Assembly (NCBI GenBank): GCA_030691505.1 | Contig: JAUYEG010000087.1 | Coordinates: 2,476-66,475, forward strand | Length of the DNA: 64,000 nucleotides | Reading direction: 5' to 3' | DNA from: Bacillota bacterium | GTDB taxonomy: Bacteria; Bacillota; Sulfobacillia; JAUYEG01 | The notes under the pieces: generated by a model | Database searches by the model: none | Told to the model about the DNA's origin: nothing | What the model saw: the letters and a program-made list of their open reading frames with translations, nothing else | Part shown: positions 27,184 to 62,061 of the stretch, in pieces | Position numbering within the stretch: the stretch's first letter is position 1 | Layout: the number at the start of each line of letters is the position of its first letter | Program-made: the position numbers and the translations under genes

Positions 27184-28209
27184 CTATTTGGTTGAGCGCT
27201 TGACCTCCGGATTTAGAGCCAGCAACCTGTCGACAGTCGTCTCGAACCGGCGGGCCAGGCCGTACAGGGTATCGCCCCGCTGGACGACGTACTGCGCCGT
27301 GTCCGCTCCACCATCATTCCTGATCGATAGGAGGTCGGTCACCCTGACGATGTCGTACCCGCGTCCGAGCAGGTCGTCTATGATCGCCGGCAGAGCCTGA
27401 GCGGTCTCGATTCGTCCCACGTGCATCAGGACAATCCCGCCGTCCTCGACCTTCGTGAGCACGCGGTCGATAATCGCCTGCACACCGCTCGTCTCCATCC
27501 AGTCCAGGCTGTCGACCTGCCACATCACAACCCAGCCGTAGCCGTGGGCCTCAAGGGCCTGCGATACCGCATCGCCGTGCGCACCGTAGGGCGGCCTGTA
27601 GAGAGGCACGAAGGATTCCTCGCCGCCCACGGCGACAAGCGCCTGCTTGCCCTGTGCGATCTCCGCATCGATCTTCTCCGGAGTTTGTTTGACCAGGCCC
27701 TCCGGGTGGGTGTACGAGTGATTGCCGACTTCGTGCCCCTCGGCGAGCATGCGCCGGACGAGATCGGGGTTGTTCTCGATCCACTTGCCGCGCGGGAAAA
27801 ACGTTACCTGCAGGTCGTATCGCTTCAGTACATCAAGCAGAGGGCCGGCGGGCTCCCAAAACCAGCCGCAGTCAAACGTAAGCGCAACGCGCTTCGTGCC
27901 TGCCTCGATGCGGGTGACGGTACGCGGCGGCGTCGGGGTCTCAAACGTCGGCCTCGCCGGTCCACCAGCCGGGATGCGGAGCACCTGTCCAGCATAGATG
28001 ACGTATTCAGACCCCCCCGGATCGCCCGTGGGATCCTGGCTGCCGCCGTCGCCCGTTCCGTCGCCGTTGCCTCTCAGCCAGGGTATCAAATCCCGGTTGG
28101 TCAGCAGGACACCGCCCATGCCGACGATAAAGCACAAGCCAATCACCAAGCCGATGGTTACCGCGCCCGGACGGACAAGCTTTAGCTTGCGTGCAAGCAC
28201 TTGTCCCAC
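27184..28209 (-). CDS. polysaccharide (peptidoglycan) deacetylase, NodB homology domain, with C-terminal LysM domain and N-terminal TM anchor
   Basis: TFDCGW and HSYTHP NodB motifs. C-terminal YVVQRGDTLYGLARRF LysM motif. Confidence 0.8.
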   Translation of the reverse strand: MGQVLARKLKLVRPGAVTIGLVIGLCFIVGMGGVLLTNRDLIPWLRGNGDGTGDGGSQDPTGDPGGSEYVIYAGQVLRIPAGGPARPTFETPTPPRTVTRIEAGTKRVALTFDCGWFWEPAGPLLDVLKRYDLQVTFFPRGKWIENNPDLVRRMLAEGHEVGNHSYTHPEGLVKQTPEKIDAEIAQGKQALVAVGGEESFVPLYRPPYGAHGDAVSQALEAHGYGWVVMWQVDSLDWMETSGVQAIIDRVLTKVEDGGIVLMHVGRIETAQALPAIIDDLLGRGYDIVRVTDLLSIRNDGGADTAQYVVQRGDTLYGLARRFETTVDRLLALNPEVKRSTK

Positions 28210-28293: not shown

Positions 28294-29628
28294 GTGACGC
28301 ACCCACCGGAACTCGTCGATGTGTCAGTGCTCGACCAGTTGGGGCCGCTCGTTCAGTGCCGGCTGCGGTTTCCCCGTCCGCGGCTCGACGATGTGCCCGG
28401 CGAAGTGAAGAGCGCGCTGGCCCGGCTTCCGGCCCTCGGCGGGCTTGAGCAAGGGCAGCGGGTAGCCGTCACGGCGGGCAGTCGCGGCATCACCGGCATC
28501 GCGCCGATTCTCCGCGCCGCCTGCGAGTACCTTCGCACACTGGGCGTCGAGCCGGTCGTGGTGTCGGCGATGGGCAGCCACGGTGGCGGCACCGCCGCCG
28601 GCCAACGGGATCTACTCCGTTCCCTTGGCATCACCGAGGAGGCGTTGGGCGGCACGCCGGTCATCTGTTCAGCCGAAACCGACATCATCGGCCACACCCC
28701 TGACGGTCTGGCGGTGCACGCCGACCGCTTCACAGTCCGCGAGGTGCACGGTGTGCTGGTCGTCAACAGGGTCAAGCCCCACACGGCGTTCCGCGGTCCG
28801 ACCGAGTCAGGCCTGCTCAAGATGCTTGCCGTCGGTCTCGGGCGGCAGCCGGGCGCCACGATCGTCCATTCACGCGGCCCCGGGTCGATGTGCGCGGCCA
28901 TCAGGTCCATGGCCGCGGTTTCGCTCGAAAAGCTGCCGGTGCTGGGCGGGCTGGCGATACTCGAAAACGGCTACGAAGAGACCGCGGAGATCGTGCCGTT
29001 GATGGCCCAGGAATTCCTGTCACGCGAGGAGACTCTGCTCGCCAGGGCGCGCGAGCTGCTCCCCCGGCTGCCGCTGGCGGCCGCGGACATCCTGGTCGTG
29101 GAGCAGATCGGCAAGGAGGTCAGCGGCACCGGGATGGACACCAACATCACCGGGCGTTGGGGCGACAGTGACCCCGGTCCCGAGGCCGGGCCGACGCCCG
29201 GCTTCCGGCGGGTCGTCGTGCTGGACCTGACCCCCTCATCACACGGCAACGCCACCGGGATCGGCCTGGCCGATTTCACGACCGACCGCGTCGTTCAGGC
29301 TATGGACCGGCGGGTCACCTACACCAACTGCCTGACGTCAACGCTCATTGACCGTGCCCGCCTCCCTCTCTTCCTGCCCGACGACCGTCAGGCGCTGGCA
29401 GCCGCGGTGCTTAGCCTGGGGGAGGTGGATCGAGGGCGCGCATCGCTGGTTCAAATTCGCGACACGCTCCACCTTGACGTAATCAGGGTCTCCGCGCACG
29501 TCGTGGGCAAGATGGAGCCGCCCCCAGGTGTGACCGTGGAGGTCGAGGAGCAGCCAGGGGCCTTCCCGATGGGTTTCGACGCCGGGGGGAGGCTTGCGCG
29601 CCTCCCCGCTCCCGAGGCGTCAGGCTAA
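28294..29628 (+). CDS. LarA-like (lactate racemase N-terminal domain, DUF2088) 2-hydroxyacid racemase/epimerase homolog
   Basis: VAVTAGSRGI ... AMGSHG and VKPHTAFRGPTESG segments parallel the LarA DxTR/GTHR and EPHFMAGFSGG regions. This is recall-based, not computed. Confidence 0.55.
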   Translation: MTHPPELVDVSVLDQLGPLVQCRLRFPRPRLDDVPGEVKSALARLPALGGLEQGQRVAVTAGSRGITGIAPILRAACEYLRTLGVEPVVVSAMGSHGGGTAAGQRDLLRSLGITEEALGGTPVICSAETDIIGHTPDGLAVHADRFTVREVHGVLVVNRVKPHTAFRGPTESGLLKMLAVGLGRQPGATIVHSRGPGSMCAAIRSMAAVSLEKLPVLGGLAILENGYEETAEIVPLMAQEFLSREETLLARARELLPRLPLAAADILVVEQIGKEVSGTGMDTNITGRWGDSDPGPEAGPTPGFRRVVVLDLTPSSHGNATGIGLADFTTDRVVQAMDRRVTYTNCLTSTLIDRARLPLFLPDDRQALAAAVLSLGEVDRGRASLVQIRDTLHLDVIRVSAHVVGKMEPPPGVTVEVEEQPGAFPMGFDAGGRLARLPAPEASG

Positions 29629-30647
29629 AGCGCGTAGCGCCGGCGGGCCGAATCCACGATCCTGCCCAGCACGTCGGCCCGGCTGAGGCCCATCGCCCTG
29701 GCCATGGTCCCGATGTAGCTTGCGTGCAGGTGCCGCTCGTTGCCGGTCAGTATCTGCAGCCCGGCAAAGGTATTTATCTCGAGGACCGCCGCCCGGCCGT
29801 CCTCGCCGACGATCGTGTCGACCCGGCCGTAGTCGCGCGCCCCCACCGCCGAAAACGCCCGCATCGCCGTATCCTGCACGGCCTCCAACTGCTCAGCGCT
29901 CAGCCGTGCAGGGCAGTGCATGATCTCGTTATCCATCTTGTGCTCAAACGTGTTGGTGCGCGCGTTGTTGTACTCGATCTCGAGCGGGATCAGGGCTTGC
30001 GGCGGATCGCCGATGACCCCGACCGTGACCTCCCGGCCCTGCAGGTAGGACTCCACCAGGGCCCCCTGGTCCATCCGGCTCACGATGGCTTCTGCCTGGC
30101 GCCGGAGGGAGACCGCGTCGGTAACAATGGAGTCGTCGCTTATTCCCGCGCTGCCGCGGCCCCGCACTGGCTTGACAAAGAGCGGGAAAGCCAGCGGCGG
30201 CGGTGGCGTCCATCCCGGGCCGATCGAACTCAACGGCACCGCGTGCCCCGTGGTGGCGCCGTCCTTCCCGATGGCTATGAACGGGGCGGTATTGACCCCG
30301 TGGCAAGACCACAGCTTCTTCCGTACGGCCTTGTCCAGGGCCACAAGGTCCAGGCCTGATCCGCAGTAGGGGATGCCAAGGGCCTCCAGGAGCGCCACCT
30401 CGGCCAGCGAAGAGGTGTTAAACACCAGTTGCGCCCGCATGCCGCGCAGCGCCGCGACCGTCTCCAGCGGGTCGCCGGCCTGCCATTGCACCAGCTCCGC
30501 CTCGTGGCCGGCCTCCAACAGAGCGTCGCGGTGCAGGCTTGCCTCCTCGATGGCATCGTCAGGCATCTCGCTGCCGGTGTACCTACGCTGCCATTCGACG
30601 TTCCGTCCGGGACGGAACAACACCGCTATCCTCAGTTTGTTTCCCAT
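29625..30647 (-). CDS. D-Ala-D-Ala ligase-family ATP-grasp enzyme with atypical N-terminal substrate region
   Basis: LEALGIPYCGSG, PLFVKPVRGRGSAGI, RVD and VLEINT motifs match the Ddl ATP-grasp core. ATG at MGNKLRIAVLF with a GGAGG RBS. Overlaps the convergent LarA-like gene by 4 nt. Confidence 0.75.
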   Translation of the reverse strand: MGNKLRIAVLFRPGRNVEWQRRYTGSEMPDDAIEEASLHRDALLEAGHEAELVQWQAGDPLETVAALRGMRAQLVFNTSSLAEVALLEALGIPYCGSGLDLVALDKAVRKKLWSCHGVNTAPFIAIGKDGATTGHAVPLSSIGPGWTPPPPLAFPLFVKPVRGRGSAGISDDSIVTDAVSLRRQAEAIVSRMDQGALVESYLQGREVTVGVIGDPPQALIPLEIEYNNARTNTFEHKMDNEIMHCPARLSAEQLEAVQDTAMRAFSAVGARDYGRVDTIVGEDGRAAVLEINTFAGLQILTGNERHLHASYIGTMARAMGLSRADVLGRIVDSARRRYAL

Positions 30648-30724
30648 CTCGCGCCTCCGGTCTCGCCGAGGTCCCCACGCCGGACACTCCGCGCCGGTCC
30701 GGTGTGCCGGTCCCGCGTGCTTGT

Positions 30725-32503
30725 CTAAGCCGATCTGCTGCGGGCTACATCCAGGCACCCGGCGACGCGTCTGGCCTCCGCCACCGGCCGCCCGCTGTCA
30801 TCTGTGGCCCGGCAGGCTCCGTCCACAATCGCAGTGTGTACCGTGCCGCGCGCATGCGCATTGCCCGCCAGGTCGGGGGCGTCAAGCAGCCCGCACTCGA
30901 CCGCTAGGGCGAGCGTCTCGGGGTCGGCCCAGGGGTCGCTAGTGCCTCTCGGCGCCAGCTCGCGCATGGCAGCCAGAAGCAGCCTTGCCTCGCTCAGGAG
31001 CTCGTCCCGCCGGGCGGTGACCCGCCGGTCGCGGGTCATGTCGGGCAGGCCGCGCAACAGGGCGTCGATAACGCCGCCGGCCATGCGCGCGCTTCCGATG
31101 ACGTCACCCGCGCGTGCCGCGTGGCTGGCCTCCGAATAGCCGACGACGTGCACGATATGCGGCCGCATTGCGAGCTGCAGGGCGATGGACCCGCACATGT
31201 GCCCCGCGGCCCGCTCGATCCCCGTTGGAACGCTGGCCAGGCCCGTGCGCGTCTCGCGCCAGATCGCGAATCCGCCGTTCTCCTCGAGCTCTCCCGCCAG
31301 TTCCAGCTTGGCCAGCATCTTGGCCAGATCCATGTCCGGGGCCGTCCCTACAGGGGTGTTGAACATCATCTGGCCGACATAGTCCCGCACGCCCAGCCGC
31401 TTTGCGTTGTACGCCGCAAGAAAGAAGGTCGCGACGGCGACGCTGTCGGGGGCAGCCCGCAGACTCCACTGGTGCGATTCGTTGACCTCGACGGGCACGC
31501 CATGCCCGGCGTGCCAGGAGATGCCGTCCTGGGCCTCGCCGATGGCCTCCCGGAGGCCGCGGTCGCTCCGGCGGTCCAGCACGTTGTACCAGAAAAGGGG
31601 AATCGCGGCCCAGGCGTTATTAATCGTTCGCTGCAGCACATCGGCCATCCGCAGTACATCGCGAGTGCCGCTGTAGCACCGGACAAGCGGCCGGTTGCCG
31701 GTGCGGGTAGCAGAGTAGATCAGGCGGAGGTCGTCTTCGCTGCGAATGGGTACGCCGCCGGCCCCATCCTGGGCGGGGTCCATCTCGGCGGGCCTGAAAA
31801 AGCTTGCCTGCGCGTTCTGGTCCGGCCCCAGCGACAGGACGTCGAGCACCTCCGCTTGGGCAATCTCGCGCGCCCCGCGGACGGTTTCGTCCACTGTCGG
31901 CTGCCCGAAATGGTGACGGATGAGCGGCGCCGGCGCCCTGGCCTTGATCCTCGCGATGAGTGTATCCGGCAACTCCGCCGGCGCAGCTGCCGCCTCGCCG
32001 CCCACCAGGTAGGCGCGGCAGTCGATGTCGCTGGAGCTGCTGCCGAAAGTGGCCTCGAACACCCCCATCCGCGCCGCCACGGCGCAGTTGGGGTCGGTGC
32101 CGCCGAAGACCAGGCGCAGGCCGGCGTCAATACGCGGGCGCAGCCGCGGCACGATGTCGGCCAGCATGCGCTCGAGGGCGTCAGGAGTCAGCCGGTAGCT
32201 GAGGGCGAGTACATCAGGCTCCCACCGCTGCACTTCAGCGACGATCGCCTCCGGCGGCTGGGCCGCGCCGAGAAAGCGCGTCTCAAATCCGGCCTGGTCC
32301 GCGAGAGCCAAGAAACGCCGGACGCCGGCAACGTGAACGCAGTTACCCAGGCAGGTCGCCAGCAGCCGGGCTCGTGACCGCGAAGATCGCCTCGTCAACC
32401 TCAGTGTCTCCTTCCCGAACCAGGTCAAGGACTTCGCTTGGGCTACGGCCGGCGATCCCCATCCGCGCGGCGTTGCGGCCCTCGCGCCTGTAGTCTGTGT
32501 CAT
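30725..32503 (-). CDS. coenzyme-B12-type carbon-skeleton mutase: N-terminal B12-binding-like Rossmann domain fused to a glutamate mutase E (GlmE)-like TIM-barrel
   Basis: N-terminus LLATCLGNCVHVAGVRRFLALADQAGFETRFLG resembles the B12-binding GDxHxxG-...-GfeVi.LG fold, with NCVHVAG in place of DxHxxG. C-terminal SHQWSLRAAPDSVAVATFFLAAYNA and NTPVGTAPDMDLAKMLAKLELAG resemble the GlmE FHQWMGGFPQDESKAFGVI and TPHEAIGIPTKEANAAG segments. The track start overlaps the upstream gene by ~160 nt, so the true start is probably internal. Confidence 0.55.
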   Translation of the reverse strand: MTQTTGARAATPRGWGSPAVAQAKSLTWFGKETLRLTRRSSRSRARLLATCLGNCVHVAGVRRFLALADQAGFETRFLGAAQPPEAIVAEVQRWEPDVLALSYRLTPDALERMLADIVPRLRPRIDAGLRLVFGGTDPNCAVAARMGVFEATFGSSSSDIDCRAYLVGGEAAAAPAELPDTLIARIKARAPAPLIRHHFGQPTVDETVRGAREIAQAEVLDVLSLGPDQNAQASFFRPAEMDPAQDGAGGVPIRSEDDLRLIYSATRTGNRPLVRCYSGTRDVLRMADVLQRTINNAWAAIPLFWYNVLDRRSDRGLREAIGEAQDGISWHAGHGVPVEVNESHQWSLRAAPDSVAVATFFLAAYNAKRLGVRDYVGQMMFNTPVGTAPDMDLAKMLAKLELAGELEENGGFAIWRETRTGLASVPTGIERAAGHMCGSIALQLAMRPHIVHVVGYSEASHAARAGDVIGSARMAGGVIDALLRGLPDMTRDRRVTARRDELLSEARLLLAAMRELAPRGTSDPWADPETLALAVECGLLDAPDLAGNAHARGTVHTAIVDGACRATDDSGRPVAEARRVAGCLDVARSRSA

Positions 32504-33515
32504 GCATCGCTGATGCCAGGGCGATCATCGCGTTGATGGTCGGTGTGCCTATCCCAGCGATGCGTCCCAGCGCCGAAATCGGCACCAGGCTGGCCGGCAC
32601 GTCCTCCCAGATGTAGCGGTGGTTGAGGTGCGCCGGGGCCCGGATGCCGGCGTAGCCGGGATTGTTGAGGACGGCCTCGCGGAGCGTCGCTCCCTCGGCG
32701 CCGTACGCTTCGCCAAGCCAATCGAGCGCTGACCGCGCACGTACGCCGTAGGCCCGGGCGACGTCCACCCGTTCGCTGTCGATCTGCTCGATAATCCGGG
32801 CCACCGTTGGGGTTATGCCCTCCAGGTAGTAGTCAAACTCTCCGCCCGTCGCCTCGATGTGCGCCGCGTTGAGCAGGGTGACTCCGGGATGGAAGACGGC
32901 GCCCATATTGTCGAGGCCGGTCTCCAGCACGCAACTGGCCGCGTAGAACTGTGGAAAGGCCGGGTTAAGGGCCGCGAGAACCCGCGGCGTGTCATCGGCC
33001 GGCAGGGCGGCCAGCGGCACGAATCGTTTGACGCTGAACACGCGGCAGGTTCCGTCGGCCTCCGCACGGCTGGCGAAAAGGAGTGTCTGGGCCTCCGCGA
33101 CAATGACGCCGCGCGGTGCACCGTCCTCCGTGAGGGCATGGCGGACCTCGAGGGCGCCTCCGGTCCGGCCGGGATTGAGCACGATGATCTGCCCTGGCTG
33201 GACCAACGGGGCCAGCATCTCGGCAAGCTCTCGGTGCGCAGTGGCAGGCACGACGACCATCAGAACGCGCGCACCGCTCACGGCCGCCTCAAGATCGGTG
33301 GTAACGAGGCTCGGTCTGGCGAAACCTGCGACCGACCCGGTCAAGGTGATGCCCCCACGCCGCCAGAGCGGCGCCAGCCGGAGCGGCGAGCGGTTAAACA
33401 GGCGGACCTCGTGGCCCTGTAATGCCAGGCAGCCTGCCATGGCCTGTCCGCCGCTGCCGGCACCGATGACCGCATAGACGCTTTTATGCACGCTCGAACC
33501 CCCTCTCAGCCAAGA
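32343..33515 (-). CDS. NAD(P)-dependent opine dehydrogenase family protein (octopine/nopaline-DH-like)
   Basis: N-terminal VYAVIGAGSGGQAMAG Rossmann motif and overall similarity to opine-DH/ApbA-like folds. Start likely MSWLRGG (33515) rather than the track start at 33596. Confidence 0.7.
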   Translation of the reverse strand, partial: SWLRGGSSVHKSVYAVIGAGSGGQAMAGCLALQGHEVRLFNRSPLRLAPLWRRGGITLTGSVAGFARPSLVTTDLEAAVSGARVLMVVVPATAHRELAEMLAPLVQPGQIIVLNPGRTGGALEVRHALTEDGAPRGVIVAEAQTLLFASRAEADGTCRVFSVKRFVPLAALPADDTPRVLAALNPAFPQFYAASCVLETGLDNMGAVFHPGVTLLNAAHIEATGGEFDYYLEGITPTVARIIEQIDSERVDVARAYGVRARSALDWLGEAYGAEGATLREAVLNNPGYAGIRAPAHLNHRYIWEDVPASLVPISALGRIAGIGTPTINAMIALASAMHDTDYRREGRNAARMGIAGRSPSEVLDLVREGDTEVDEAIFAVTSPAAGDLPG

Positions 33516-34080
33516 CATGACGGGCGCTGTGCGGTCGTACGGAACGGGCTGTACACCGTTGCCGGGCCGCGGCAATGCAACGCAAATGCGGGCCAATCGA
33601 CCGACATGCGCCGGAACACGAAGCCTGAGGCGACCACTGGCTGGGGAGGTTGGGTCGGACCGAGAACACGCCCTAGGGGGCGCACCGCGGAGGTCGAGGC
33701 GGGCCGGCCGACTACTGCGCCGGTTACCCGCTTCGCGGACCCACCTCCTCCTTCAACGCTTACGAGGTTAGCTGACGGGCTCGGGTCGAAAGAGTGTGAC
33801 CCTATGCGGTCTGCGCTCTGCCGTCCCGATGTTTGGCCGGCTGCGCTTCCCGCGATTAGCCCCTACTGCCCTGGTTCCCCCGTTCCCCCGCCCAGGCGGG
33901 GGATTAAGCGATTAAGGTGGTGGCTGTTATTGCATCACCATCTTAGCATTAACTTGCGCCAACAGTCAAAGAGACCCATGCGCGTTGGCTGTCGAATACT
34001 GGCGATAGCTGGGCCAACGATGCGTCGTTGGGCGGCATACCTGCAAGGGTGCGGTTTCCCCCGTTTTCGCGTGGCTAGCT

Positions 34081-34434
34081 ATGATGACGATGCCAGCGAT
34101 ATCACGGACCTGGCCGGGTGAGGGAGTCATACGGATGCGCGACTGGCCGGAACTGGTGGATGCCTTGGGCGTCCTCGCCCGCGGGGACCGGGTGCTCGAG
34201 GCGGGCACGGGCAGGGGGGCGATGCTCGAGTACCTGCTCCGGCTGCTGAGCATGCGCCGCGCCGCCGAGCCCTGGCTCGGGATCCCGTCATTGGTCACCC
34301 TCGCCGCCGATCCAGCCGCCCGCAGCCTCGGCCAGGGCCCGCTGCCTGCGGCTGCCCGGCGATGTCGCCCAATCGGTCACAGTCGTGGAGGCCGAGCTTA
34401 CCGAGTACGTGGTTGGTCCGTGCCCGCGCTTTGA
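34081..34434 (+). pseudogene. possible remnant of a class-I SAM-dependent methyltransferase (isolated motif I only)
   Basis: VLEAGTGRGAMLEYL resembles SAM-binding motif I. There is no RBS and no further motifs. It lies in a 1.1-kb non-coding gap. Confidence 0.2.
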
Positions 34435-34617: not shown

Positions 34618-34755
34618 CAAGCTGTCTCAGAAACAAGCGTTCCCGTGGGTTAAAATACCAGGTCTCGCCCCCGAAACATTGTACAGGCACTTTTGGCGGA
34701 CTCTGCGCCTTACGCCCGTTTCGATGGCCGGACGCGCCCGCTGGGAGGGAACACC

Positions 34756-37700
34756 GTGGAGCAAGGCTCGACCGCCTTCGCACTCGGGAAGATTGCGAAA
34801 CAGTCCGACCTGAATGCAGCAATGGAAGCTACGGTTGACGCCGTGGTTAGCTTGCTTGCCCCCGACCATGCGGGTCTTTACCTGCAGGATTGGGGATCGG
34901 GACGCCTGGTGCTGGCTGCCCGCAACACATCACTTGACCCCGCAATACAGCTCGGACTGAAACTCAGGGCAAACGAGGGTCCGATCGGGCAGGCGTTTGC
35001 GTCTTGCCGTGCCCGGTGCGACAGCTACGACTTCCGGGGGGACGCGGTCCCCCCGCAGGGCGTGTCGCCCACTACCCGTTCTCACCTTGTCCAGCCCCTG
35101 ATGGACGGCGAGACGCCGGTCGGCGTGCTTGAGGCCCAAGCCGGGCGCCCGGGGGCCTTCGACTCCAGCGCGGCCGCCACCCTTGCCCTCGTTTCCCGCA
35201 ACGCCGCCCGGTCTCTGCGGTTCGCACTCGGGGTCCGCCAGGAGGCGGTGCGGTCACGCTTGGTGGGTAGCCTACTCGACGCCGCAGTCACCGGCGCCGT
35301 GTTTGTCGACCGGGAGGGCTGGGTAAGGCACGCGAGCGGCCGCCTTCTGGCCATGCTTGGCTTGGAGTCTAACGGCCGCGGCGGCCCGACCGGACGGACG
35401 TATCGCCGTTTCTTCTGGCCCCGGCTTGCCGCCAGGCTCGACCGGCCGTCGCGCTATCCCCCCGCCAAGGTCGCTCGCGCGGTAATCGAAGGGCGCGAGC
35501 TCGAGGAGGACATGTGCCTGTCAGGCCCGGTTGAGATGACCATCCGCCGCCGGTGCGTGCCCGTCCGGGACGACGAAGGACGTATTGCGGGCCGTATCGA
35601 GATCTATGAGGATGTCACGGCCGAACGACGCGCCGCGCGCAGGCTGGAGGCCTCGGCCTCGATAGCCCGGGCCTTGACCGCGAGCTTCGATCTCACCAGC
35701 ATTTTCGCCGGTCTGACCCACGGGCTCTCGGCTGCGGTGGAGTTTGATGCGGCCATCTGCTACATACGCGGAGTCGGGGGCGCCGTCCGCATAGCGCGCC
35801 TTGACCCGCGTTTCCCCGACAGCCCCGTGCTGGAGGAAACCGACCGCCCTGCAGCGCCCGGCGGCTGCTGCTGCCCGGAAGGGTCCGCACTGGTCACCTC
35901 CGACCTCCTGGCCGAGGGCCCCCTGCGCGGCCCGGCGGCTGAACTGCGGGCTCTGGGCATGAAGCAGGTGTGTGTGCTGCCTCTCGCTGTCGGCGAAACC
36001 CGCTGCGGGATTATGGCTGTGGGATTGGCCCGGCCTGTGCCGCGCTACAGCCAGGCGACCCTTGACACACTGGTGCCCCTGGCGGAATTCCTTTCCCTGG
36101 CAGTCAACAACGCCGTGTTGTTTGAGGAGGCGACCTCCAGCGGTGAGGCCGCGCGCGAGGAGGCCGTCTGGGCCTCGGCCCTGCTGGATATGGCCCGCGC
36201 CGTGGCGAGCAGCCCGGGGCCGCATGAGACCTGCGCGGCCGGGGCCGACGTCCTGCGCCGGCTGTTCGATCACCGGTGGGCCCTGATCGCACTCAGGGAC
36301 AGCAGCCGCGACGTGTACGTCGTCGGGCATGCGGACTTCGAGCGCTACAGCGCACCGTGCCGCGAATTCGATCTCAGCCCAGCCATCGCCGTGCTCATCG
36401 AGGCGGCTTCGGCAGGCGCCCGAGTACTCACAGTAACTGGTCCGGAGGTGGGGCCCGACCTGCCGCCCGGCACGGCGTCGTTGGCCGTCGCACCGCTGTG
36501 CTCGGCGGATGACCTCATCGGGGGCGTGATCCTGGGCTTTGCCCACGGCCGCGGACTCGCGGGTGAGCGGGAACAGGCAATACTCCTGGGCCTGGCCGAC
36601 CAGATGGCTCTTGGTGTCCAGCAGGCCGGCCTTCTCGCCGCCGCAAAGCAGCAGGCCAGCCTGCTTGCCGGCATCAGCCGCGCCAGCAGGCGTCTTACCT
36701 CCAGCCTGGACCTGGAAACCGTGCTGGACGAGGTAATCGGCTTCCTCACGCGGGACCAGGGAGCAGACTGGGTAGGGATCTACCTGAAGGACAAGGGGAC
36801 CGGCGATCTGATGCTGCGTGCGCACGGCGGCCGCTTTGCGCCACTGGTGGCGCCGGGCGAGCGCATTCCGTTGGGTCGGGGGCTGATCGGCGCCGCCGCG
36901 GGCGACGGGCAGCCGGTGATAGCCAACGATGTTTCTGTCGACAGCCGCTTCGTTGGCGCCCCCGGCAATCCGACTCAGGCTGAAATGTGCGTTCCCCTCA
37001 AGTTCAACGACCAGATCCTCGGCGTCCTCAACGTCGAGTCGGCGCGCAGAAACGCCTTCGGCGACCGCGAGCTACAGGTGGTAGAGACGCTGTCGGACCA
37101 CCTTGCCATCGCCATCAACAACGCCGACCTGTACCAGCACATCCGGCGTCTGCACCTTGCGACGACCCAATCGCTGGTCAGGGCCATGGAGGCCCGCGAC
37201 CCGTACGCGCGCGGACACGGCGCGCGTGTCTCGGAATACGCCGTGGCCATCGGGTGCCGGCTGGGGCTCAACACGCCCGACGTCGAGGAACTCCGACTGG
37301 CCGGGCTGCTCCACGACGTCGGCAAGGTCGTCGTGGAGGACCGCGTGCTTGCCAAACGGGGGCCCCTCGATTCCGTGGAAAGGGCCCTGGTAATGGAGCA
37401 CTCCGTCGCCGGGGCCGGCATCCTGCGCCGGACGGAGGCCCTCGCCGCCCTTGCGCCGCTGGTCCGCTGGCATCATGAGTGGTACGGGGGCGGGGGGTAC
37501 CCTGACGGGATCAAGGACGACGACATCCCCGTCGGGTCGCGAATCCTGGCCGTCGCCGATGCCTTCGACGCCATGACGTCCGACCGGCCCTACCGTACCG
37601 CGCTCCCGATCGACGAGGCGGAGGAACGGTTGCGGGCCGGGCAATACACGCAGTTTGATCCGGCGGCGGCGCAGGCTTTCCTCGCCGTGCTCGCGGAGGC

Positions 37701-38838
37701 CCGGCAGTGCGGGAGTCCCCTCTGGCGCGATCTGCAGCAGCGCGTCGAGGCAAGCCGGGAGGCGGGCGGCATGCCAGTTGCCGGCCGGGGCAGCCCGGAC
37801 CAGCCCGGCCGGATCCTGCCCGTTCACGGCAGGGCGCTCAACGTGATGTACCGCGTGTCCCTTGAGACTGGCAGCATCCTGCAGCGCCAGCAGCTCCTGC
37901 AGCGAATCCTGGGGATCCTGCACGACACGATGGGCAAGCACAAATACGTCATACTGCTCGCCGAACCCGACTCAAACGATTTGCTCATCGAGGCGGAGAT
38001 CGGATTCGGCAGTTCCCATCACAGGTACAGGATACCGGCAGGGAGGGGAGTCACCGGGTGGGTGGCGGAGCAGGGTGTCCCGCTCCTCGTCAAGGATGTT
38101 GAGAACGACCCGCGCTATATCGCCGGACCGTCGTCGGGCATCCGTTCCGAACTGGCTGTTCCCCTGATCGCCAGGGGCCGGGTAATCGGGGTGCTCGACA
38201 TCGAATCGGAGGTGCCCAACGCATTCACCACGGAGGACCTGTACCTGATCTCCGCGGTCGCCGGCCAGATCTCGACCGCCATCGAGGTCTCTCAACAGCA
38301 CGAACAGGTCGCCCGCGCAGCCATCGTCGACGGTTTGACAGGGCTCTACAACCACTCGTACTTCTACCGACGGCTTGAGGAGGAAATGGCCCGAAGCAAG
38401 CGCCATGGTCGTCCACTCGTCGTAGGTATTGCGGATGTCGACAAGCTAAAAGAGGTCAACGATGAGTACGGCCATCTGGCAGGCGATGCGGTGCTACGCG
38501 AGATCGCGGCCTGCCTCCGCGCCATGCTGCGCAAGTCGGACATTGTCGCCCGCTACGGAGGCGACGAGTTCGGGCTGATCATGCCGGACACGGACCTCCC
38601 CGACGCCGGGATGATCTCTCAGAGGTTTCAGGCAGAGCTTCACTCACGCCTCATTAAGACCGACAAGCACGAAATTACCCTGCCCACCCTGGCTCTGGGC
38701 CTGGCCGTCTTCCCCCTTGAGGGTGACTCCCCGGACGCGCTCGTGAGTAAGGCGGACGAGCGGCTCTACGTCCAAAAGGGCTCCGGTCGATCCTCCGGCC
38801 CGAGCCACCTTGAGCTGCGTGTGACGCGCACCGCCTGA
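34756..38838 (+). CDS. multidomain c-di-GMP signalling protein: GAF-PAS-GAF-GAF-GAF-HD-GYP-GAF-GGDEF
   Basis: HD-GYP motifs LLHDVGK and HHEWYGGGGYP. Intact GGDEF (RYGGDEFGL) with an RKSD I-site. Several GAF-like segments. GTG start with RBS GGGAGGG. The track start at 34693 is an extension. Confidence 0.85.
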   Translation: MEQGSTAFALGKIAKQSDLNAAMEATVDAVVSLLAPDHAGLYLQDWGSGRLVLAARNTSLDPAIQLGLKLRANEGPIGQAFASCRARCDSYDFRGDAVPPQGVSPTTRSHLVQPLMDGETPVGVLEAQAGRPGAFDSSAAATLALVSRNAARSLRFALGVRQEAVRSRLVGSLLDAAVTGAVFVDREGWVRHASGRLLAMLGLESNGRGGPTGRTYRRFFWPRLAARLDRPSRYPPAKVARAVIEGRELEEDMCLSGPVEMTIRRRCVPVRDDEGRIAGRIEIYEDVTAERRAARRLEASASIARALTASFDLTSIFAGLTHGLSAAVEFDAAICYIRGVGGAVRIARLDPRFPDSPVLEETDRPAAPGGCCCPEGSALVTSDLLAEGPLRGPAAELRALGMKQVCVLPLAVGETRCGIMAVGLARPVPRYSQATLDTLVPLAEFLSLAVNNAVLFEEATSSGEAAREEAVWASALLDMARAVASSPGPHETCAAGADVLRRLFDHRWALIALRDSSRDVYVVGHADFERYSAPCREFDLSPAIAVLIEAASAGARVLTVTGPEVGPDLPPGTASLAVAPLCSADDLIGGVILGFAHGRGLAGEREQAILLGLADQMALGVQQAGLLAAAKQQASLLAGISRASRRLTSSLDLETVLDEVIGFLTRDQGADWVGIYLKDKGTGDLMLRAHGGRFAPLVAPGERIPLGRGLIGAAAGDGQPVIANDVSVDSRFVGAPGNPTQAEMCVPLKFNDQILGVLNVESARRNAFGDRELQVVETLSDHLAIAINNADLYQHIRRLHLATTQSLVRAMEARDPYARGHGARVSEYAVAIGCRLGLNTPDVEELRLAGLLHDVGKVVVEDRVLAKRGPLDSVERALVMEHSVAGAGILRRTEALAALAPLVRWHHEWYGGGGYPDGIKDDDIPVGSRILAVADAFDAMTSDRPYRTALPIDEAEERLRAGQYTQFDPAAAQAFLAVLAEARQCGSPLWRDLQQRVEASREAGGMPVAGRGSPDQPGRILPVHGRALNVMYRVSLETGSILQRQQLLQRILGILHDTMGKHKYVILLAEPDSNDLLIEAEIGFGSSHHRYRIPAGRGVTGWVAEQGVPLLVKDVENDPRYIAGPSSGIRSELAVPLIARGRVIGVLDIESEVPNAFTTEDLYLISAVAGQISTAIEVSQQHEQVARAAIVDGLTGLYNHSYFYRRLEEEMARSKRHGRPLVVGIADVDKLKEVNDEYGHLAGDAVLREIAACLRAMLRKSDIVARYGGDEFGLIMPDTDLPDAGMISQRFQAELHSRLIKTDKHEITLPTLALGLAVFPLEGDSPDALVSKADERLYVQKGSGRSSGPSHLELRVTRTA

Positions 38839-49899: not shown

Positions 49900-50045
49900 C
49901 CTCAAGATTCACCGCGTGATACACTCAAACCACGGCACACCACATTATGTTAACACAAGATTCGCAGAAGTCAGAATACCTGAATTACACTAACTTTAGG
50001 CGTTTGCGTTCGCGCCTGCCCTGATGCAGGAGTGATTCTTGCATG
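49900..50045 (+). promoter_or_regulatory. relatively AT-rich leader of the acs cluster, with palindromes TGTTAACA and ATGCAGGAGTGATTCTTGCAT
   Basis: Read directly. The second palindrome spans the AGGAG RBS and the ATG of the first gene. Confidence 0.4.
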
Positions 50046-50804
50046 CAACGAAGCTTGCGCCGTGTTTTTGGGCCGTGCCGGGACGAGTTCCCGGCGGATG
50101 CGATGACAGATCCGTCTGCCCGGCTTGCGCCGTTCGGCGGCAGTCTGGCCGCAAGCCGGCTGGACGTTTTTGAGCGCGCCCGTACTGCGCTTTTGGCGCT
50201 ATCGCCGGATGAAACCGCCAGCCGCACCGGGGCATGCCTTCGCCCCGGCGGAGTCACCGTCGACTTCCTTGGCGGCACTTACGACGTGGACTTCGCGCGC
50301 GGCGTCGTGCGCCATCTTCTGTCCGGCCCGGGGGCCGCGGACGACCTGACGGTCAACACCCTTATCCTACATTACCTTCTGTTGGCCGATGGGTCTCCGC
50401 TGTCGGGGTGCAACGCCTCCTATCGGGAGTTTCCAGGTGCCCAGATCTACTACGGGCCGTTCCTGGCCAGGACGGTCACGCCGCTGGTCGGCGCCTTCGG
50501 GGCCCGGTCGCACGTCCTGCTCCAGGCCGGGGAGCGCCTTGGAGGTCGTCCGGTGCCGCTTGGAGATGCGGCCGTTGTGCTCGACGTGTTTCCCAGGCTT
50601 CCGATGACCTTCGTCGTGTGGTCCGGGGATGACGAGGTGCCGGCATCGGGGAGCGTTCTTTTCGACGGGTCGGCGGCCGGCTATCTGCCGCTTGAGGACC
50701 TCGTCATCGCGGCCTCGTTGGCCGTCGCGGCTTTGCGCCGGGCCGCGCCGGAAGCACCGCCGACGGCGCCGACAGGAGGTGGGGGACCGTGCACGAGGCA
50801 CTAG
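50043..50804 (+). CDS. DUF3786-like protein commonly found at the head of CODH/ACS clusters
   Basis: TALLALSPDETASRTGACLRPGGVTVDFLGGTYDVDF matches the DUF3786 pattern (from memory). AGGAG RBS lies upstream of ATG 50043. Confidence 0.5.
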   Translation: MQRSLRRVFGPCRDEFPADAMTDPSARLAPFGGSLAASRLDVFERARTALLALSPDETASRTGACLRPGGVTVDFLGGTYDVDFARGVVRHLLSGPGAADDLTVNTLILHYLLLADGSPLSGCNASYREFPGAQIYYGPFLARTVTPLVGAFGARSHVLLQAGERLGGRPVPLGDAAVVLDVFPRLPMTFVVWSGDDEVPASGSVLFDGSAAGYLPLEDLVIAASLAVAALRRAAPEAPPTAPTGGGGPCTRH

Positions 50805-51619
50805 GCCATGGCCAGGGCGGAGGCGGCGGCACGAGGCCGCTGTCGGGCCGCATCGCCGTCGCAGGCAAGGGTGGCGTCGGCAAGACGACCATCTCCGCCG
50901 GACTGGCCCGGCTGCTGGCCCGCGAGGGCGCGGCCGTCTATGCCGTCGACGCCGACCCCGATGTCAGCCTCGGCCTGGCTTTGGGGGTTCCGGCTCAAGA
51001 CCTGGCGGCCCTGCCGCCGATCATCGCCGCGCGCGATCTCGTCCTTTCGAGGACGGGGGAGGGGACGATGCTACTCCTCAACCCCGCAGTTGACGACCTG
51101 CTATCGAGCTACGGGCTCTGGCATGAGGGCATCCGGCTGTTCCGCATGGGCGGCGTCAAGGGCGGGGGGACCGCGTGCTACTGCCCCGAGAACTCGTTTC
51201 TGCGGGCGATGCTGTCCTCGATCGTCCTGCGCAAGGGCGAGATGGTCCTGCTTGACATGGGGGCCGGCATCGAGCATCTGACCCGAGGAACGGCGCGCGG
51301 GGTCGACCTGATGCTCATCGTCACCGAATCGGGGCGGGCGAGCCTCGACACCGCGGCCACCATCGGACGCCTTGCGGCTCAAATAGGGGTGCGCGAGATC
51401 CGCTACGTCGGCAACAAGGTTCGTAACGAGCTCGAACGCCAGGCGATGCGAGCCGCGTTTGGCGACAAGCTCGCAGCCATGATCGGCCTGCATGAAGAGG
51501 TCATGGACGCCGCCGCGGGCGGGCGGGCGGGCGATCTGGAGGGGCCGTTCGGCCACCAGCTTAAGGAGCTTCTAGGAAAGGTTCTATCTATCGTATCCAT
51601 GTCCCAAGAGACGAGGTGA
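50789..51619 (+). CDS. cooC: CODH nickel-insertion accessory ATPase
   Basis: GKGGVGKTT P-loop and CYCPEN motif. GTG start with a GGAGGTGGGGG RBS. Confidence 0.85.
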   Translation: MHEALGHGQGGGGGTRPLSGRIAVAGKGGVGKTTISAGLARLLAREGAAVYAVDADPDVSLGLALGVPAQDLAALPPIIAARDLVLSRTGEGTMLLLNPAVDDLLSSYGLWHEGIRLFRMGGVKGGGTACYCPENSFLRAMLSSIVLRKGEMVLLDMGAGIEHLTRGTARGVDLMLIVTESGRASLDTAATIGRLAAQIGVREIRYVGNKVRNELERQAMRAAFGDKLAAMIGLHEEVMDAAAGGRAGDLEGPFGHQLKELLGKVLSIVSMSQETR

Positions 51620-51630
51620 GTGGTCAAGAC

Positions 51631-53631
51631 ATGAGCGAGGAGAAAACTCAGCAGGCGGCTCGCACGGTTTCGCGGCGGCCCGCCGACGCCAAGCGCACGT
51701 GCGATCCGGCAGCGATGGAGATGCTGGAGTGCGCGGCGTGCCGCGGCGAGCAGACGATGTTCGACCGCTACGTGGCCCAGTCCCCCCAGTGCCCGTTCGG
51801 CTTGGCCGGCATCTGCTGCCGGATCTGCATTCAGGGGCCGTGCCGGATCAACCCCCGGCGGCCCGGGGCGGACAAGGGCATCTGCGGCGCGAGCGAGTAC
51901 ACCATCGTGGCCCGCAACATCGCCCGGTACGTAGCCGGTGGGGCCGCATGCCACTCGGATCACGGCCGTCACGCCGCACTTACGCTGCTGCACGCGGCGG
52001 AGGGCAAGCTGCCCGACTACAAGCTGACCGACACGGCAAAGCTGCGCGTGGTCGCTGAGCGCATCCGCGTCCAGACGAGCGGCCGGAGCGACAATGAGGT
52101 GGCCAAGGAAGTCGCCCTCGCGGCCCTGGCCGACTACGCGGACCGCTACGGCGAGCCGTGCCGCTGGCTGTCGAGTACGATCACGGCCGGCAGGCAGGAC
52201 AAGTTTAAGCACTGCGACATCGCCCCGGACGGGATCGACAAGGCTATCGTCCAGGTCCTTCACCGCACCGCGATGGGCATGGACGCTGACCCTGTCAGCA
52301 TCATCTTCGGAGCGCTGCGCACCGCGCTGGCCGACTACACCGGCATGCACATCGCCACCGACATCACCGACATTCTCTTCGGCACGCCGGAGCCGGTGGT
52401 GTCCGAGGCAAACCTTGGCGTAATCGATCCGGAATACGTCAACCTGGCCATCCACGGCCACAACCCGATCTTGTCCGAGGTCGTGGTGGACGCGGCCAGA
52501 AACCTCAAGTCCGAGGCGGTTGCGGTCGGAGCCAAGGGCGTCAACGTCGTCGGCATCTGCTGCACCGGCAACGAGTTGCTGATGCGTGAGGGAGTCTACC
52601 TCGCGGCCAACCAGAGCTCTCAGGAGTTGGCGGTGATGACCGGAGCCGTGGATGCGATGCTCGTCGATATCCAGTGCATCGCGCCTTCCGTCCGCGCCGT
52701 GTGCGAGTGCTACCATACCAAGCTGATAACGACGGCGGATATCGCCAAGATTCCCGGTAGCCATCACTTTGATTTCCGCGAGGACCGGGCGCTCGAGACG
52801 GCCGAGGCAATGGTGCGCCTCGCGGTCGCCGCGTTCGCCGAGCGGGACCCCGAGAAGATCCACATTCCCAAGCACAAGGCGACCGTCATAGCCGGTTGGA
52901 GCCTGGAGGCGCTTTTGGATGTCTTCTCCAAGGTCAACCCGGAGAGCCCGGTGGCGGTCCTGACGGATGCGATCCGCAGCGGCGAGCTCAAGGGCGTGTG
53001 CCTTTTGGCCGGGTGCAACAACCTCAAGGGGCCGCACGACGAGGGCCATCTGACGGTGGCCAGGGAACTCGCCAAGAACGATGTGTTCATGGTGGCGACC
53101 GGGTGCTCGGCCGGGGCGTTCGCCAAGGCAGGCATGATGAACCCCGACGCCGTCGAGCGCTATGCCGGCCGCGGCCTCAAGGCCTTCCTCGCCCGCCTGT
53201 CAGCGGCTGCCGCCCCCAAGCACGGGCTTCCGCTCATTTTCCACATGGGTTCATGCGTTGACAACACCAGGGCTCAGGACCTGCTGACACTGATGGCCAA
53301 GGAGCTCGGCGTGGACACCCCAAAGGTGCCGTTCGTGGCCAGCGCGCCCGAGGCCATGCACGAAAAGGCAGTATCTATCGGGTCCGGGTGCGTCGCGCTC
53401 GGAATCCCGACCCACGTGGGAGTCATGCCGCACATCGAGGGCAGCCAGCTCGTCTACGGGGTGGCGACCCAGATCGCGCGCGACGTCTACGGCGGGTTCT
53501 TCATATTCGAAACCGATCCGACCAAAGGGGCCCTGAAGCTGATTGAGGCCCTCGACTACCGCAGCTGGAAGCTGCGTGTACATCACGAAGCCGCGACCCG
53601 GTACGGCACCGCGGTCGCCACCAGCTGGTAG
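51631..53631 (+). CDS. acsA: anaerobic carbon-monoxide dehydrogenase catalytic subunit
   Basis: N-terminal B/D-cluster cysteines (CPFGLAGICCRICIQGPC) and C-cluster ligand regions (GICCTGNE, HMGSCVDN). About 667 aa. Confidence 0.9.
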   Translation: MSEEKTQQAARTVSRRPADAKRTCDPAAMEMLECAACRGEQTMFDRYVAQSPQCPFGLAGICCRICIQGPCRINPRRPGADKGICGASEYTIVARNIARYVAGGAACHSDHGRHAALTLLHAAEGKLPDYKLTDTAKLRVVAERIRVQTSGRSDNEVAKEVALAALADYADRYGEPCRWLSSTITAGRQDKFKHCDIAPDGIDKAIVQVLHRTAMGMDADPVSIIFGALRTALADYTGMHIATDITDILFGTPEPVVSEANLGVIDPEYVNLAIHGHNPILSEVVVDAARNLKSEAVAVGAKGVNVVGICCTGNELLMREGVYLAANQSSQELAVMTGAVDAMLVDIQCIAPSVRAVCECYHTKLITTADIAKIPGSHHFDFREDRALETAEAMVRLAVAAFAERDPEKIHIPKHKATVIAGWSLEALLDVFSKVNPESPVAVLTDAIRSGELKGVCLLAGCNNLKGPHDEGHLTVARELAKNDVFMVATGCSAGAFAKAGMMNPDAVERYAGRGLKAFLARLSAAAAPKHGLPLIFHMGSCVDNTRAQDLLTLMAKELGVDTPKVPFVASAPEAMHEKAVSIGSGCVALGIPTHVGVMPHIEGSQLVYGVATQIARDVYGGFFIFETDPTKGALKLIEALDYRSWKLRVHHEAATRYGTAVATSW

Positions 53632-53643
53632 GGGGGAGCCGGT

Positions 53644-55839: not shown

Positions 55840-55856
55840 GACATCGTCCCGTTGGA

Positions 55857-55882
55857 GCCCCGCCCGCCAGGACGGGCGGGGC
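55857..55882 (+). other. intercistronic GC hairpin (CCCCGCCCG-ccagga-CGGGCGGGG) between acsB and acsC
   Basis: Perfect 9-bp stem read directly. No U-tract. Confidence 0.5.
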
Positions 55883-55942
55883 CGCGGCGGGGCCTGCCGA
55901 GAGGTCACGCAAGACGTTTGCGGAGGAGGCTGATTTGTTCCG

Positions 55943-57298: not shown

Positions 57299-57360
57299 GG
57301 CGGGCCGGGCTGCCCCCGGGCAGCGCCCGGGGAGGCACGCTCTCGAACGTTGGAGGCTTG

Positions 57361-59325: not shown

Positions 59326-59402
59326 GAGAGGCGGGCCACAGCAGGTATTTATCAGGCGGTCAGGGCGGAGGATGCCCCGGGTCCGCCAAAACGGAGGCCC
59401 CG

Positions 59403-60161: not shown

Positions 60162-60219
60162 GGCTTCCAGACCGCGGGCTGCGCCGCTCGCGTTCGTTTC
60201 AGCGAAAGGAGACTTGCCG

Positions 60220-61188: not shown

Positions 61189-62061
<873 letters not shown>

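Follow-up and report, generated by a model that had tools for sequence, protein, structure and literature searches.

What kind of enzyme results when a B12-binding domain and a glutamate mutase-like barrel are joined in one chain, and what would such an enzyme do beside an opine dehydrogenase? The question is raised by a gene on the minus strand (30725..32398) of a 64,000-nucleotide (nt) stretch of DNA from a Bacillota bacterium (GenBank assembly GCA_030691505.1, contig JAUYEG010000087.1), which we refer to as the window. We place its product of 557 amino acids (aa) among the radical isomerases that use adenosylcobalamin (AdoCbl), with a probability of roughly 0.55. The fold is that of the AdoCbl isomerases, but the residues that hold glutamate in glutamate mutase appear to be replaced, the aspartate of the cobalamin loop is a cysteine, and the operon carries a riboswitch for cyclic di-AMP (c-di-AMP) in its leader.

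A B12-binding domain joined to a glutamate mutase-like barrel

The original prediction for this locus, made from the sequence alone, described a single polypeptide in which a B12-binding segment lies N-terminal to a barrel like that of GlmE, the E subunit of glutamate mutase. Pfam, a structural model and Foldseek all agree with this description. The Rossmann-like N-terminal domain, residues 11-118 of the 557-aa protein (32045..32368, minus strand), is matched by PF02310 with 43.5 bits against a cut-off of 32.1 (E 3.3e-11), and in the longer, 592-aa open reading frame (ORF) from which the prediction started the same match covers aa 46-153 (43.3 bits, E 3.7e-11). The prediction had named, as an outcome that would refute it, an N-terminal segment that aligns with no B12-binding model; the PF02310 match above threshold shows that this is not the case.

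An AlphaFold2 model computed from 103 family sequences (mean predicted local distance difference test score 93.5, predicted template modelling (TM) score 0.86) begins with an alpha/beta domain of five strands (residues about 11-118), which is followed by a beta/alpha barrel and, at the C terminus, by a helical part. The barrel and C-terminal region, residues about 140-557, are encoded by 30725..31981 (minus strand), and the top Foldseek matches of the model in the PDB are the E chains of glutamate mutase, 6h9e_B (E 1.3e-15) and 1cb7_B (E 7e-15), which superpose over 442-444 columns with a target TM score of 0.67-0.68 and a sequence identity of 14%. Next in the ranking come ornithine 4,5-aminomutase and lysine 5,6-aminomutase (E 1e-10 to 1e-8), and a third tier is formed by the methylmalonyl-CoA, isobutyryl-CoA and 2-hydroxyisobutyryl-CoA mutases. 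There is no MetH, MtaB or MttB barrel among the top 50 matches. The N-terminal part superposes on the B12 domains of 1y80, 4r3u_C and 7xcn_M with a root-mean-square deviation of about 2.5 A.

Fold and sequence do not find the same relatives with equal ease. No NCBIfam model matches the protein, and a search of the PDB sequences with the family sequence profile finds B12 domains only, not GlmE. The Pfam family of GlmE, PF06368, has a cut-off of 26.6 bits, and some homologs of the window protein lie on either side of it: P0010 (28.5 bits) and P0256 (27.5 bits, profile positions 21-383) score above, P0118 (25.0 bits) and P0106 (24.4 bits) below.

Cysteine at the aspartate position of the cobalamin loop

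In cobalamin-binding domains of the base-off/His-on type the cobalt-ligand loop reads D-x-H-x-x-G. The corresponding loop of the window protein is C-V-H-V-A-G, from Cys20 to Gly25 (32324..32341, minus strand), or N-C-V-H-V-A-G at residues 54-60 of the 592-aa ORF, where His57 is His22 of the 557-aa protein. The original prediction was right to call this motif non-canonical, but it took the loop to be one residue longer, with Asn in place of Asp. HMMER alignment to the solved B12 domains of 4jgi and OraE (3kow) puts C-V-H-V-A-G in register with D-x-H-x-x-G and the Cys at the position of the Asp. The same register is obtained with MAFFT when the Escherichia coli O157 GlmS sequence, natural Asp-bearing members of the family and a sister subfamily are aligned together; the Cys then falls under the Asp of the GlmS motif G-A-D-C-H-A-V-G.

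Among 182 family sequences the loop has the form G-x-C-[V/I]-H-[V/I/L]-[A/G]-G. Cys stands at the Asp position in about 93% of them and Asp in 8, and these Asp-bearing members (GDDVHVGG, GRDIHVAG, GNDVHVAG) have the canonical motif with its length unchanged. The position before the Cys, where the window protein has its Asn, varies: D occurs in 55% of the sequences and N in 18%, followed by A, E, H, S and T. The His and Gly of the motif are conserved in their canonical register after strand 1, and the downstream GG is present as F-G-G-T. In place of S-x-L the family has [S/G]-Y-R-L, whose invariant Arg aligns with the Leu. On this alignment the residue expected to hydrogen-bond to the predicted cobalt-ligating His is Cys. 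The family profile also matches the B12 domain of OraE (E 4e-6), and no invariant or nearly invariant Lys is found within residues 1-135, which span the B12-binding domain.

Residues of the glutamate mutase active site

To compare the barrel with glutamate mutase residue by residue, a GlmE profile built from the protein of the E. coli O157:H7 Sakai operon was aligned with the family by hhalign. The alignment extends over 300 columns, is reproducible and is colinear with the Pfam and Foldseek coordinates. We take Arg66, Arg100, Arg149 and Glu171 (Clostridium cochlearium numbering) to be the residues that bind glutamate, and Glu330 and Lys326 to be the ligands of the adenosyl ribose. The GlmE segment R148-H149-G-T-P-D, which contains the equivalent of C. 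cochlearium Arg149, pairs with Y242-S243-G-T-R-D of the family, and S-Y-E170-G-G-G-I-S-Y-N (C. cochlearium Glu171) pairs with A-W-A264-A-I-P-L-F-W-Y-N, in which the YN is kept. The ribose segment K325-x-x-x-E329 (C. cochlearium Lys326 and Glu330) pairs with V419-x-x-x-E423; E423 is invariant, and the Lys is not conserved. Further along, A-F-E-A-G-V-L-D-V-P of GlmE pairs with A-V-E-C-G-L-L-D-A-P, giving a shared A-x-E-x-G-x-L-D-x-P. For the two remaining arginines a manual colinear mapping on the Foldseek and Pfam coordinates gives, with low confidence, Arg100 to Gln197 and Arg66 to His163. In summary, the residue expected to hold the adenosyl ribose appears to be kept and those expected to hold glutamate appear to be replaced.

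The window protein thus shares with glutamate mutase (GlmS/MutS and GlmE/MutE; 1cb7 and 6h9e of C. cochlearium, ECs_0762 and ECs_0764 of E. coli O157) a Rossmann-type B12 domain, the GlmE-fold TIM barrel, the Glu aligned with Glu330, the YN, the A-x-E-x-G-x-L-D-x-P motif and the His, Gly and GG of the cobalamin motif. It differs in being one chain with the B12 domain N-terminal, where glutamate mutase has two subunits, in the Cys for Asp of D-x-H-x-x-G, in the replacement of the aligned glutamate-binding residues (Arg149 and Glu171, and probably Arg66 and Arg100) and in the missing conservation of Lys326. The genetic setting differs as well. The glutamate mutase operon of E. coli O157:H7 Sakai consists of glmS, glmL, glmE and the gene for methylaspartate ammonia-lyase, whereas the operon in the window has an opine dehydrogenase, an amide ligase and a c-di-AMP riboswitch, and neither MutL nor methylaspartase. 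We do not file the protein as a glutamate mutase, which it probably is not, because the aligned glutamate-binding residues are replaced, and because it lacks methylaspartase and MutL as partners and matches no NCBIfam model. Nor is the identity as glutamate or 2-methyleneglutarate mutase that the original prediction had implied supported: besides the change in those residues, PF06368 is not reached by the window protein, and its conserved partners are an opine dehydrogenase and an amide ligase.

A widespread family and its MutL-fused relatives

The ORF is beyond doubt a gene, and it belongs to a large family. More than 6000 homologs were found in a large protein collection, the top one with 94% identity (E = 0), and when the representatives of all clusters at 50% identity were searched, 711 clusters matched at E <= 1e-3. 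With one genome scanned per species, 565 loci were confirmed, so that at least 565 species genomes, of bacteria and archaea, carry a member. Eighty of these loci were retrieved. The bacterial ones come from Bacillota, Aminicenantes, Planctomycetota, Bacteroidota, Ignavibacteria, Gemmatimonadota, Armatimonadota and Dehalococcoidia, the archaeal ones from Methanomicrobia, Thermococci, Promethearchaeota and Thermoproteota. Their proteins are 44-69% identical to the window protein, and identity between bacteria and archaea is about 50%.

Two homologs carry additional domains. In P0256 the barrel protein is fused to a C-terminal ATP-grasp domain of the glutathione synthetase/RimK type, and P0246 has a weak match to Peptidase_M15_3 (D-Ala-D-Ala carboxypeptidase-like); both suggest that the product undergoes amide or peptide chemistry. 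A sister subfamily of 600-635 aa (P0289-P0375, P0274, P0284, P0279) has 30-35% identity over the barrel. Its cobalamin motif is canonical, G-N-D-P-H-T-x-G or L-D-A-H-T-L-G in the same register, and S-Y-R-L is found there too. Three of its members, P0274, P0284 and P0279, carry a fused MutL domain (PF13941, the Pfam family named for the accessory L component of glutamate mutase). MutL is a reactivase or chaperone, and the fusions independently hint that the wider clade performs AdoCbl chemistry. The sister subfamily appears to be uncharacterised too.

The family itself was flagged in 2009. Zhang, Rodionov, Gelfand and Gladyshev (BMC Genomics 10:78) predicted it as a new family of B12-dependent proteins with a distant N-terminal B12-binding domain and an always adjacent octopine/nopaline dehydrogenase (pfam02317); they noted D-Ala-D-Ala ligase and asparagine synthase nearby and called for experiments. 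In the same year Mavromatis et al. (PLoS One 4:e4192) described the two-gene operon as Hore_09740/09750 of Halothermothrix orenii, present also in other thermophilic anaerobes and of unknown role. The window protein has the features listed by Zhang et al.: the N-terminal B12 domain, the adjacent pfam02317 dehydrogenase and a Ddl nearby. What we add to these two papers, which knew of 11 genomes, is the GlmE-type fold, the register of the Cys-for-Asp exchange, the replaced substrate residues, the MutL-fused sister subfamily and the c-di-AMP riboswitch, the link to which is new here. We found no functional study of the family in the open full-text literature, subscription-only literature being outside the scope of the search.

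The operon and its conserved neighbours

The gene upstream of the B12 gene, on the same strand, encodes a protein of the opine dehydrogenase family (32343..33491, minus strand). Its likely start is the GTG at 33491, behind GAGAGGGGG. Pfam Octopine_DH (PF02317) matches its product with E 8.5e-48, and N-(1-D-carboxyethyl)-L-norvaline dehydrogenase (CENDH, 1bg6) aligns over its full length with E 1.3e-86 (aa 37-388 against 3-353). The third gene of the operon, downstream of the B12 gene (29625..30647, minus strand), encodes an ATP-grasp protein like D-Ala-D-Ala ligase (Ddl), with a likely start at ATG 30647 that gives 340 aa, the length of its homolog at locus L003. It is matched by Pfam Dala_Dala_lig_C (E 1.5e-25) and by E. 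coli DdlB (1iov, E 1.7e-20), and stays below the cut-off of every NCBIfam Ddl model.

How constant this arrangement is can be seen from 86 related loci, in which all neighbouring ORFs were clustered into families without supervision. The opine dehydrogenase gene adjoins the B12 gene in 82 of them, from Bacillota to archaea, usually immediately upstream and on the same strand. Only three neighbour families recur: the opine dehydrogenase (75-82 loci), an asparagine synthase-like amidotransferase (29-35 loci; E 6e-81 against E. coli AsnB) and the Ddl-like ATP-grasp protein (13 loci including the window). Methylaspartate ammonia-lyase is not recurrent near the family, and the clustering gave no recurrent gene for a transporter, a regulator, reductive activation or a methyl donor.

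Downstream of the ATP-grasp gene, and convergent with it, lies a gene for a LarA-like isomerase with nickel-pincer cofactor (NCBIfam group 22, NF052515; 28294..29628, plus strand; E 2.9e-138, 461 bits against a cut-off of 400), and the ends of the two genes share 4 nt. No solved relative of this protein was found. Its possible role is to supply the operon with a 2-hydroxy acid or to racemise one; as a neighbour of the family it occurs only at L003 and L007 among the 86 loci, is specific to the clade of the window and lies outside the conserved core.

Several other neighbours were seen at some of the loci. At L006 (9686..11769) and L029 (3941..6021) a pair of DUF2229 and HGD-D-like genes, related to 2-hydroxyacyl-CoA dehydratase, follows the B12 gene in the place of the ligase, with a diaminopimelate epimerase and an aminotransferase a few kb downstream in the same locus. 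A polysaccharide deacetylase with LysM stands beside the operon in the window (27184..28209, minus strand) and also in L003, and in Caldanaerobacter a D,D-carboxypeptidase gene adjoins the operon.

Start codon and overlap of the B12 gene

The six-frame ORF listing gives the B12 gene as a maximal ORF of 592 aa (30725..32503, minus strand), between an upstream maximal ORF of 417 aa (32343..33596) and a downstream one of 377 aa (29625..30758). As originally predicted, this ORF overlaps the opine dehydrogenase by about 160 nt: the two maximal ORFs share 161 nt, the stop of the dehydrogenase being the TAA at 32345..32343. The dehydrogenase frame is backed by the CENDH alignment through residue 388, that is, to about 32433. 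The start of the B12 gene had been left open; we place it at TTG 32398..32396, Leu36 of the 592-aa ORF. A ribosome-binding site, GGAAGGAG, can be read directly 9 nt upstream of this codon (32408..32415, minus strand), homologs are typically 545-560 aa long with N termini that line up with Leu36, and the NCBI protein MDP2872423.1, entitled 'cobalamin B12-binding domain-containing protein [Bacillota bacterium]', is identical to the 557-aa product. For these reasons the real gene is 30725..32398 and the true overlap 56 nt. Over this stretch (32343..32398, minus strand) both frames are coding, one for the C-terminal tail of the opine dehydrogenase and the other for the beginning of the B12 protein (19 codons). 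We considered the ATG at 32503 as a start and rejected it: it has no Shine-Dalgarno sequence, and its 35 additional residues are not conserved.

At most of the other loci the overlap between the dehydrogenase stop and the B12 start is about 4-13 nt, often 4 nt, and across the 86 loci the start usually lies 10-16 codons ahead of the conserved Cys. In the clade of the window, L003, L007 and L008 the dehydrogenase frame continues up to one base short of the Cys codon, and the B12 gene starts 17-20 codons upstream of the Cys, so that the long overlap is a conserved trait of this clade.

A c-di-AMP riboswitch in the operon leader

The 5' leader of the operon contains a c-di-AMP riboswitch aptamer (Rfam RF00379, the ydaO/yuaA leader; 33742..33920, minus strand), about 250 nt upstream of the opine dehydrogenase start and on the same strand. 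The match covers the full model (1-134) with 77.9 bits against a gathering score of 38 (E 2e-16), and it is the sole Rfam match in the whole window. Just upstream lies a promoter-like TTGACT-18 nt-TAAGAT with a TG extension (33940..33969, minus strand), a consensus match only, but suitably placed and the sole such match found by scanning 29400..34300. Three terminator-like matches all fall inside coding regions and are at chance level.

The window is not alone in this. Rfam also finds RF00379 upstream of the homologous operon in Caldinitratiruptor (L001), Caldanaerobacter (L004) and the metagenomic Bacillota of L003, L007 and L009, and an nhmmer profile made from the elements found by Rfam detects the riboswitch upstream on the operon strand in 28 of the 86 loci (E 1e-15 to 1e-40). 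The aptamer in its leader assigns the operon to the c-di-AMP regulon. This riboswitch class is an off-switch, and the pathway is therefore probably on at low c-di-AMP. The riboswitch also suggests a role in osmotic or cell-envelope adaptation. The regulon includes K+ and amino-acid transporters, cell-wall remodelling and the osmotic-shock response (reviewed in PMC7266159). No paper linking a c-di-AMP riboswitch to an opine dehydrogenase or a B12 enzyme was found in the literature covered above.

Divergent from the riboswitch operon is a gene for a 1381-aa signalling protein (34693..38838, plus strand) with several GAF domains, HD/HD_5 and a C-terminal GGDEF; the arrangement is kept in L003.

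Proposed function

We propose that the protein is an AdoCbl radical isomerase because PF02310 matches above threshold, AdoCbl isomerases head the Foldseek ranking, the equivalent of Glu330 is invariant and sister proteins are fused to MutL. In such an enzyme the His of the C-x-H-x-x-G loop would presumably be the lower cobalt ligand. The Co-C bond would be cleaved homolytically, and the invariant Glu would hold the 5'-deoxyadenosyl radical, which would take a hydrogen atom from the substrate and give it back after a 1,2-rearrangement. The substrate would not be free glutamate; most likely it is derived from an amino acid and is either a product or a substrate of the opine-type NAD(P)H dehydrogenase, which would be translationally coupled to the isomerase and would reduce a C=N bond or oxidise a C-N bond. 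An amide could then be formed by the Ddl-like ATP-grasp ligase, or in many genomes by the AsnB-like amidotransferase in its place. Transcribed from the riboswitch leader, the operon would probably yield a small molecule, made or modified for osmotic or cell-envelope adaptation. The data show the architecture, the fold, the register of the motif, the start codon, the synteny and the riboswitch; from these we infer that the protein binds cobalamin and uses AdoCbl, what type of reaction it catalyses, in which order the enzymes act and what kind of product results.

The LysM deacetylase, the D,D-carboxypeptidase of Caldanaerobacter and the amide-forming enzymes fit a cell-envelope or osmotic role, but prove nothing. 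Amide-forming enzymes act in a known osmolyte pathway, for example that of N-acetylglutaminylglutamine amide (NAGGN). That archaea have the module too speaks against a function in peptidoglycan alone.

The observations that weigh against this assignment are of several kinds. PF06368 does not match the window protein even at E <= 10, the hhalign probability for the family and GlmE is below 2%, and the first two barrel strands align ambiguously, a local hhalign alignment having slipped by two beta-alpha units. The sequences nearest to the N-terminal domain are corrinoid proteins of methyltransferase systems (4jgi, 1y80 and MttC, 7xcn). Cobalamin binding by family members is itself a prediction from sequence and, because about 93% of sequences have Cys in place of the Asp that pairs with the His, and the Leu of S-x-L aligns with an invariant Arg, the cofactor could be bound in a different mode. 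No adenosyltransferase, MutL or MeaB-type gene recurs near the family in the neighbour clustering. As for regulation, the riboswitch link is confined to Bacillota-type or unclassified loci, and the expression platform is not defined, the leader 3' of the aptamer folding no better than shuffled sequences (z = 0.15).

Four other explanations have to be set against these data. A genuine GlmS-GlmE fusion that converts L-glutamate to 3-methylaspartate would account for GlmE being the top structural match, for the score of P0010 above the PF06368 cut-off and other homologs near it, and for the conserved A-x-E-x-G-x-L-D-x-P and Glu330 equivalent. We nevertheless regard it as very improbable, since Arg149 and Glu171 are replaced by Tyr242 and Ala264 (and Arg100 and Arg66, on the manual mapping to Pfam coordinates, by Gln197 and His163), the window protein matches neither PF06368 nor any NCBIfam model and has only 14% identity to GlmE, and no methylaspartate ammonia-lyase or MutL gene is a neighbour, unlike in the E. 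coli O157 operon. If, on the other hand, the nearest relatives of the N-terminal domain are taken as the guide, the protein would be a corrinoid-dependent methyltransferase, cycling between methyl-cob(III)alamin and cob(I)alamin, with a barrel that binds the methyl donor or acceptor. TIM barrels also serve as substrate modules in corrinoid methyltransferase systems, and many database records name family members 'methionine synthase'. But the structural neighbours of the barrel are all AdoCbl isomerases and none of the top 50 is MetH, MtaB or MttB, the equivalent of the ribose-binding Glu is invariant, MutL is fused to sister proteins, and reductive-activation and methyl-donor genes do not recur nearby; a methyltransferase therefore seems improbable.

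The second structural tier raises the question of an aminomutase that uses AdoCbl together with pyridoxal 5'-phosphate (PLP), of the ornithine 4,5- or lysine 5,6-type, making a beta- or shifted-amino acid, for instance as an osmolyte. These enzymes (OraSE and KamDE) share the TIM barrel and the B12-binding domain with the window protein, Lys360 of the barrel is invariant, and a product of this kind would suit the c-di-AMP regulon; beta-amino acids are known osmolytes of thermophiles and methanogens. Ornithine 4,5- and lysine 5,6-aminomutase carry their PLP-binding Lys in the B12-binding domain, however, and because the family has no conserved Lys there an enzyme of this type appears unlikely. 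GlmE is also the better match, domain order and partner genes differ from those of OraSE and KamDE, and the opine dehydrogenase would be left without a clear role. The Cys-His loop, finally, may be taken at face value: the B12-like domain would then not bind cobalamin in the usual way, and the loop would serve a metal or a different cofactor, or else the protein would assist the opine dehydrogenase as a non-catalytic or regulatory partner. The replacement of Asp by Cys throughout the family, the invariant Arg at the Leu of S-x-L and a neighbourhood free of B12-handling genes speak for this. Against it, the His, the Gly and the GG are conserved, the natural Asp-bearing members show Asp and Cys to be interchangeable in an otherwise unchanged protein, and the identity of about 50% between bacteria and archaea, with many invariant polar residues in the barrel, points to a working active site. 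The organism, moreover, uses corrinoids, since the window encodes the corrinoid-dependent Wood-Ljungdahl machinery (50043..63626, plus strand), including RACo and a subunit of the corrinoid iron-sulfur protein (CFeSP). We judge the chances of this explanation to be poor.

A parallel to the operon as a radical isomerase system is found in pyrrolysine biosynthesis, where PylB is a radical mutase that acts on the carbon skeleton of an amino acid, PylC a Ddl-like ATP-grasp ligase and PylD an NAD-dependent dehydrogenase; PylB is a radical S-adenosylmethionine (SAM) enzyme and PylD does not belong to the opine dehydrogenase family. The operon in the window would combine the same three kinds of step, as an analogy and not through homology of the mutases: the window protein is of the B12/GlmE type and not a radical-SAM enzyme, and nothing here points to lysine as the substrate. 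Going a step further, the opine dehydrogenase, the Cys-His B12 isomerase and the amide ligase could constitute an unrecognised AdoCbl route to an opine-type or branched, amino-acid-derived compatible solute or envelope building block, switched on in Bacillota at low c-di-AMP, with the family-wide Cys for Asp as a functional adaptation and not a neutral change, for example for redox or thiol control of the lower ligand. As a whole this extended proposal is tentative, and we consider it rather doubtful. If it is true, it would add a new reaction class to the B12 mutases and a new output to c-di-AMP signalling.

To our knowledge only about a dozen reactions of AdoCbl isomerases are known. Here a family with the AdoCbl isomerase fold has different substrate residues, an altered partner of the His and a fixed opine dehydrogenase partner, and its reaction has awaited assignment since 2009. 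The riboswitch link offers a physiological handle on it, namely low c-di-AMP, osmotic stress or cell-wall stress, and Caldanaerobacter, Thermoanaerobacter and Caldinitratiruptor are cultured hosts in which the product could be sought. Database names given to family members, such as 'methionine synthase' and 'methylmalonyl-CoA mutase cobalamin-binding subunit', can be corrected.

Other features of the window

Besides RACo and the CFeSP subunit (CdhD), the Wood-Ljungdahl cluster encodes a DUF3786 protein, two CooC-like ATPases, carbon monoxide dehydrogenase (Prismane), acetyl-CoA synthase, a pterin-binding methyltransferase and Hdr-like Fe-S/CCG proteins. The metagenome-assembled genome probably comes from a corrinoid-using anaerobe of the acetogen type. 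Three LysM repeats are found in a further protein (5125..6240, minus strand), which is cell-wall-related like the LysM deacetylase beside the operon. Between 12132 and 24102 lie genes for three GT4 glycosyltransferases, an APH-like kinase, a nucleotidyltransferase, a GHMP kinase and a fusion of SIS and HAD domains, a cluster that resembles a pathway to heptose or another activated sugar for a surface glycan.

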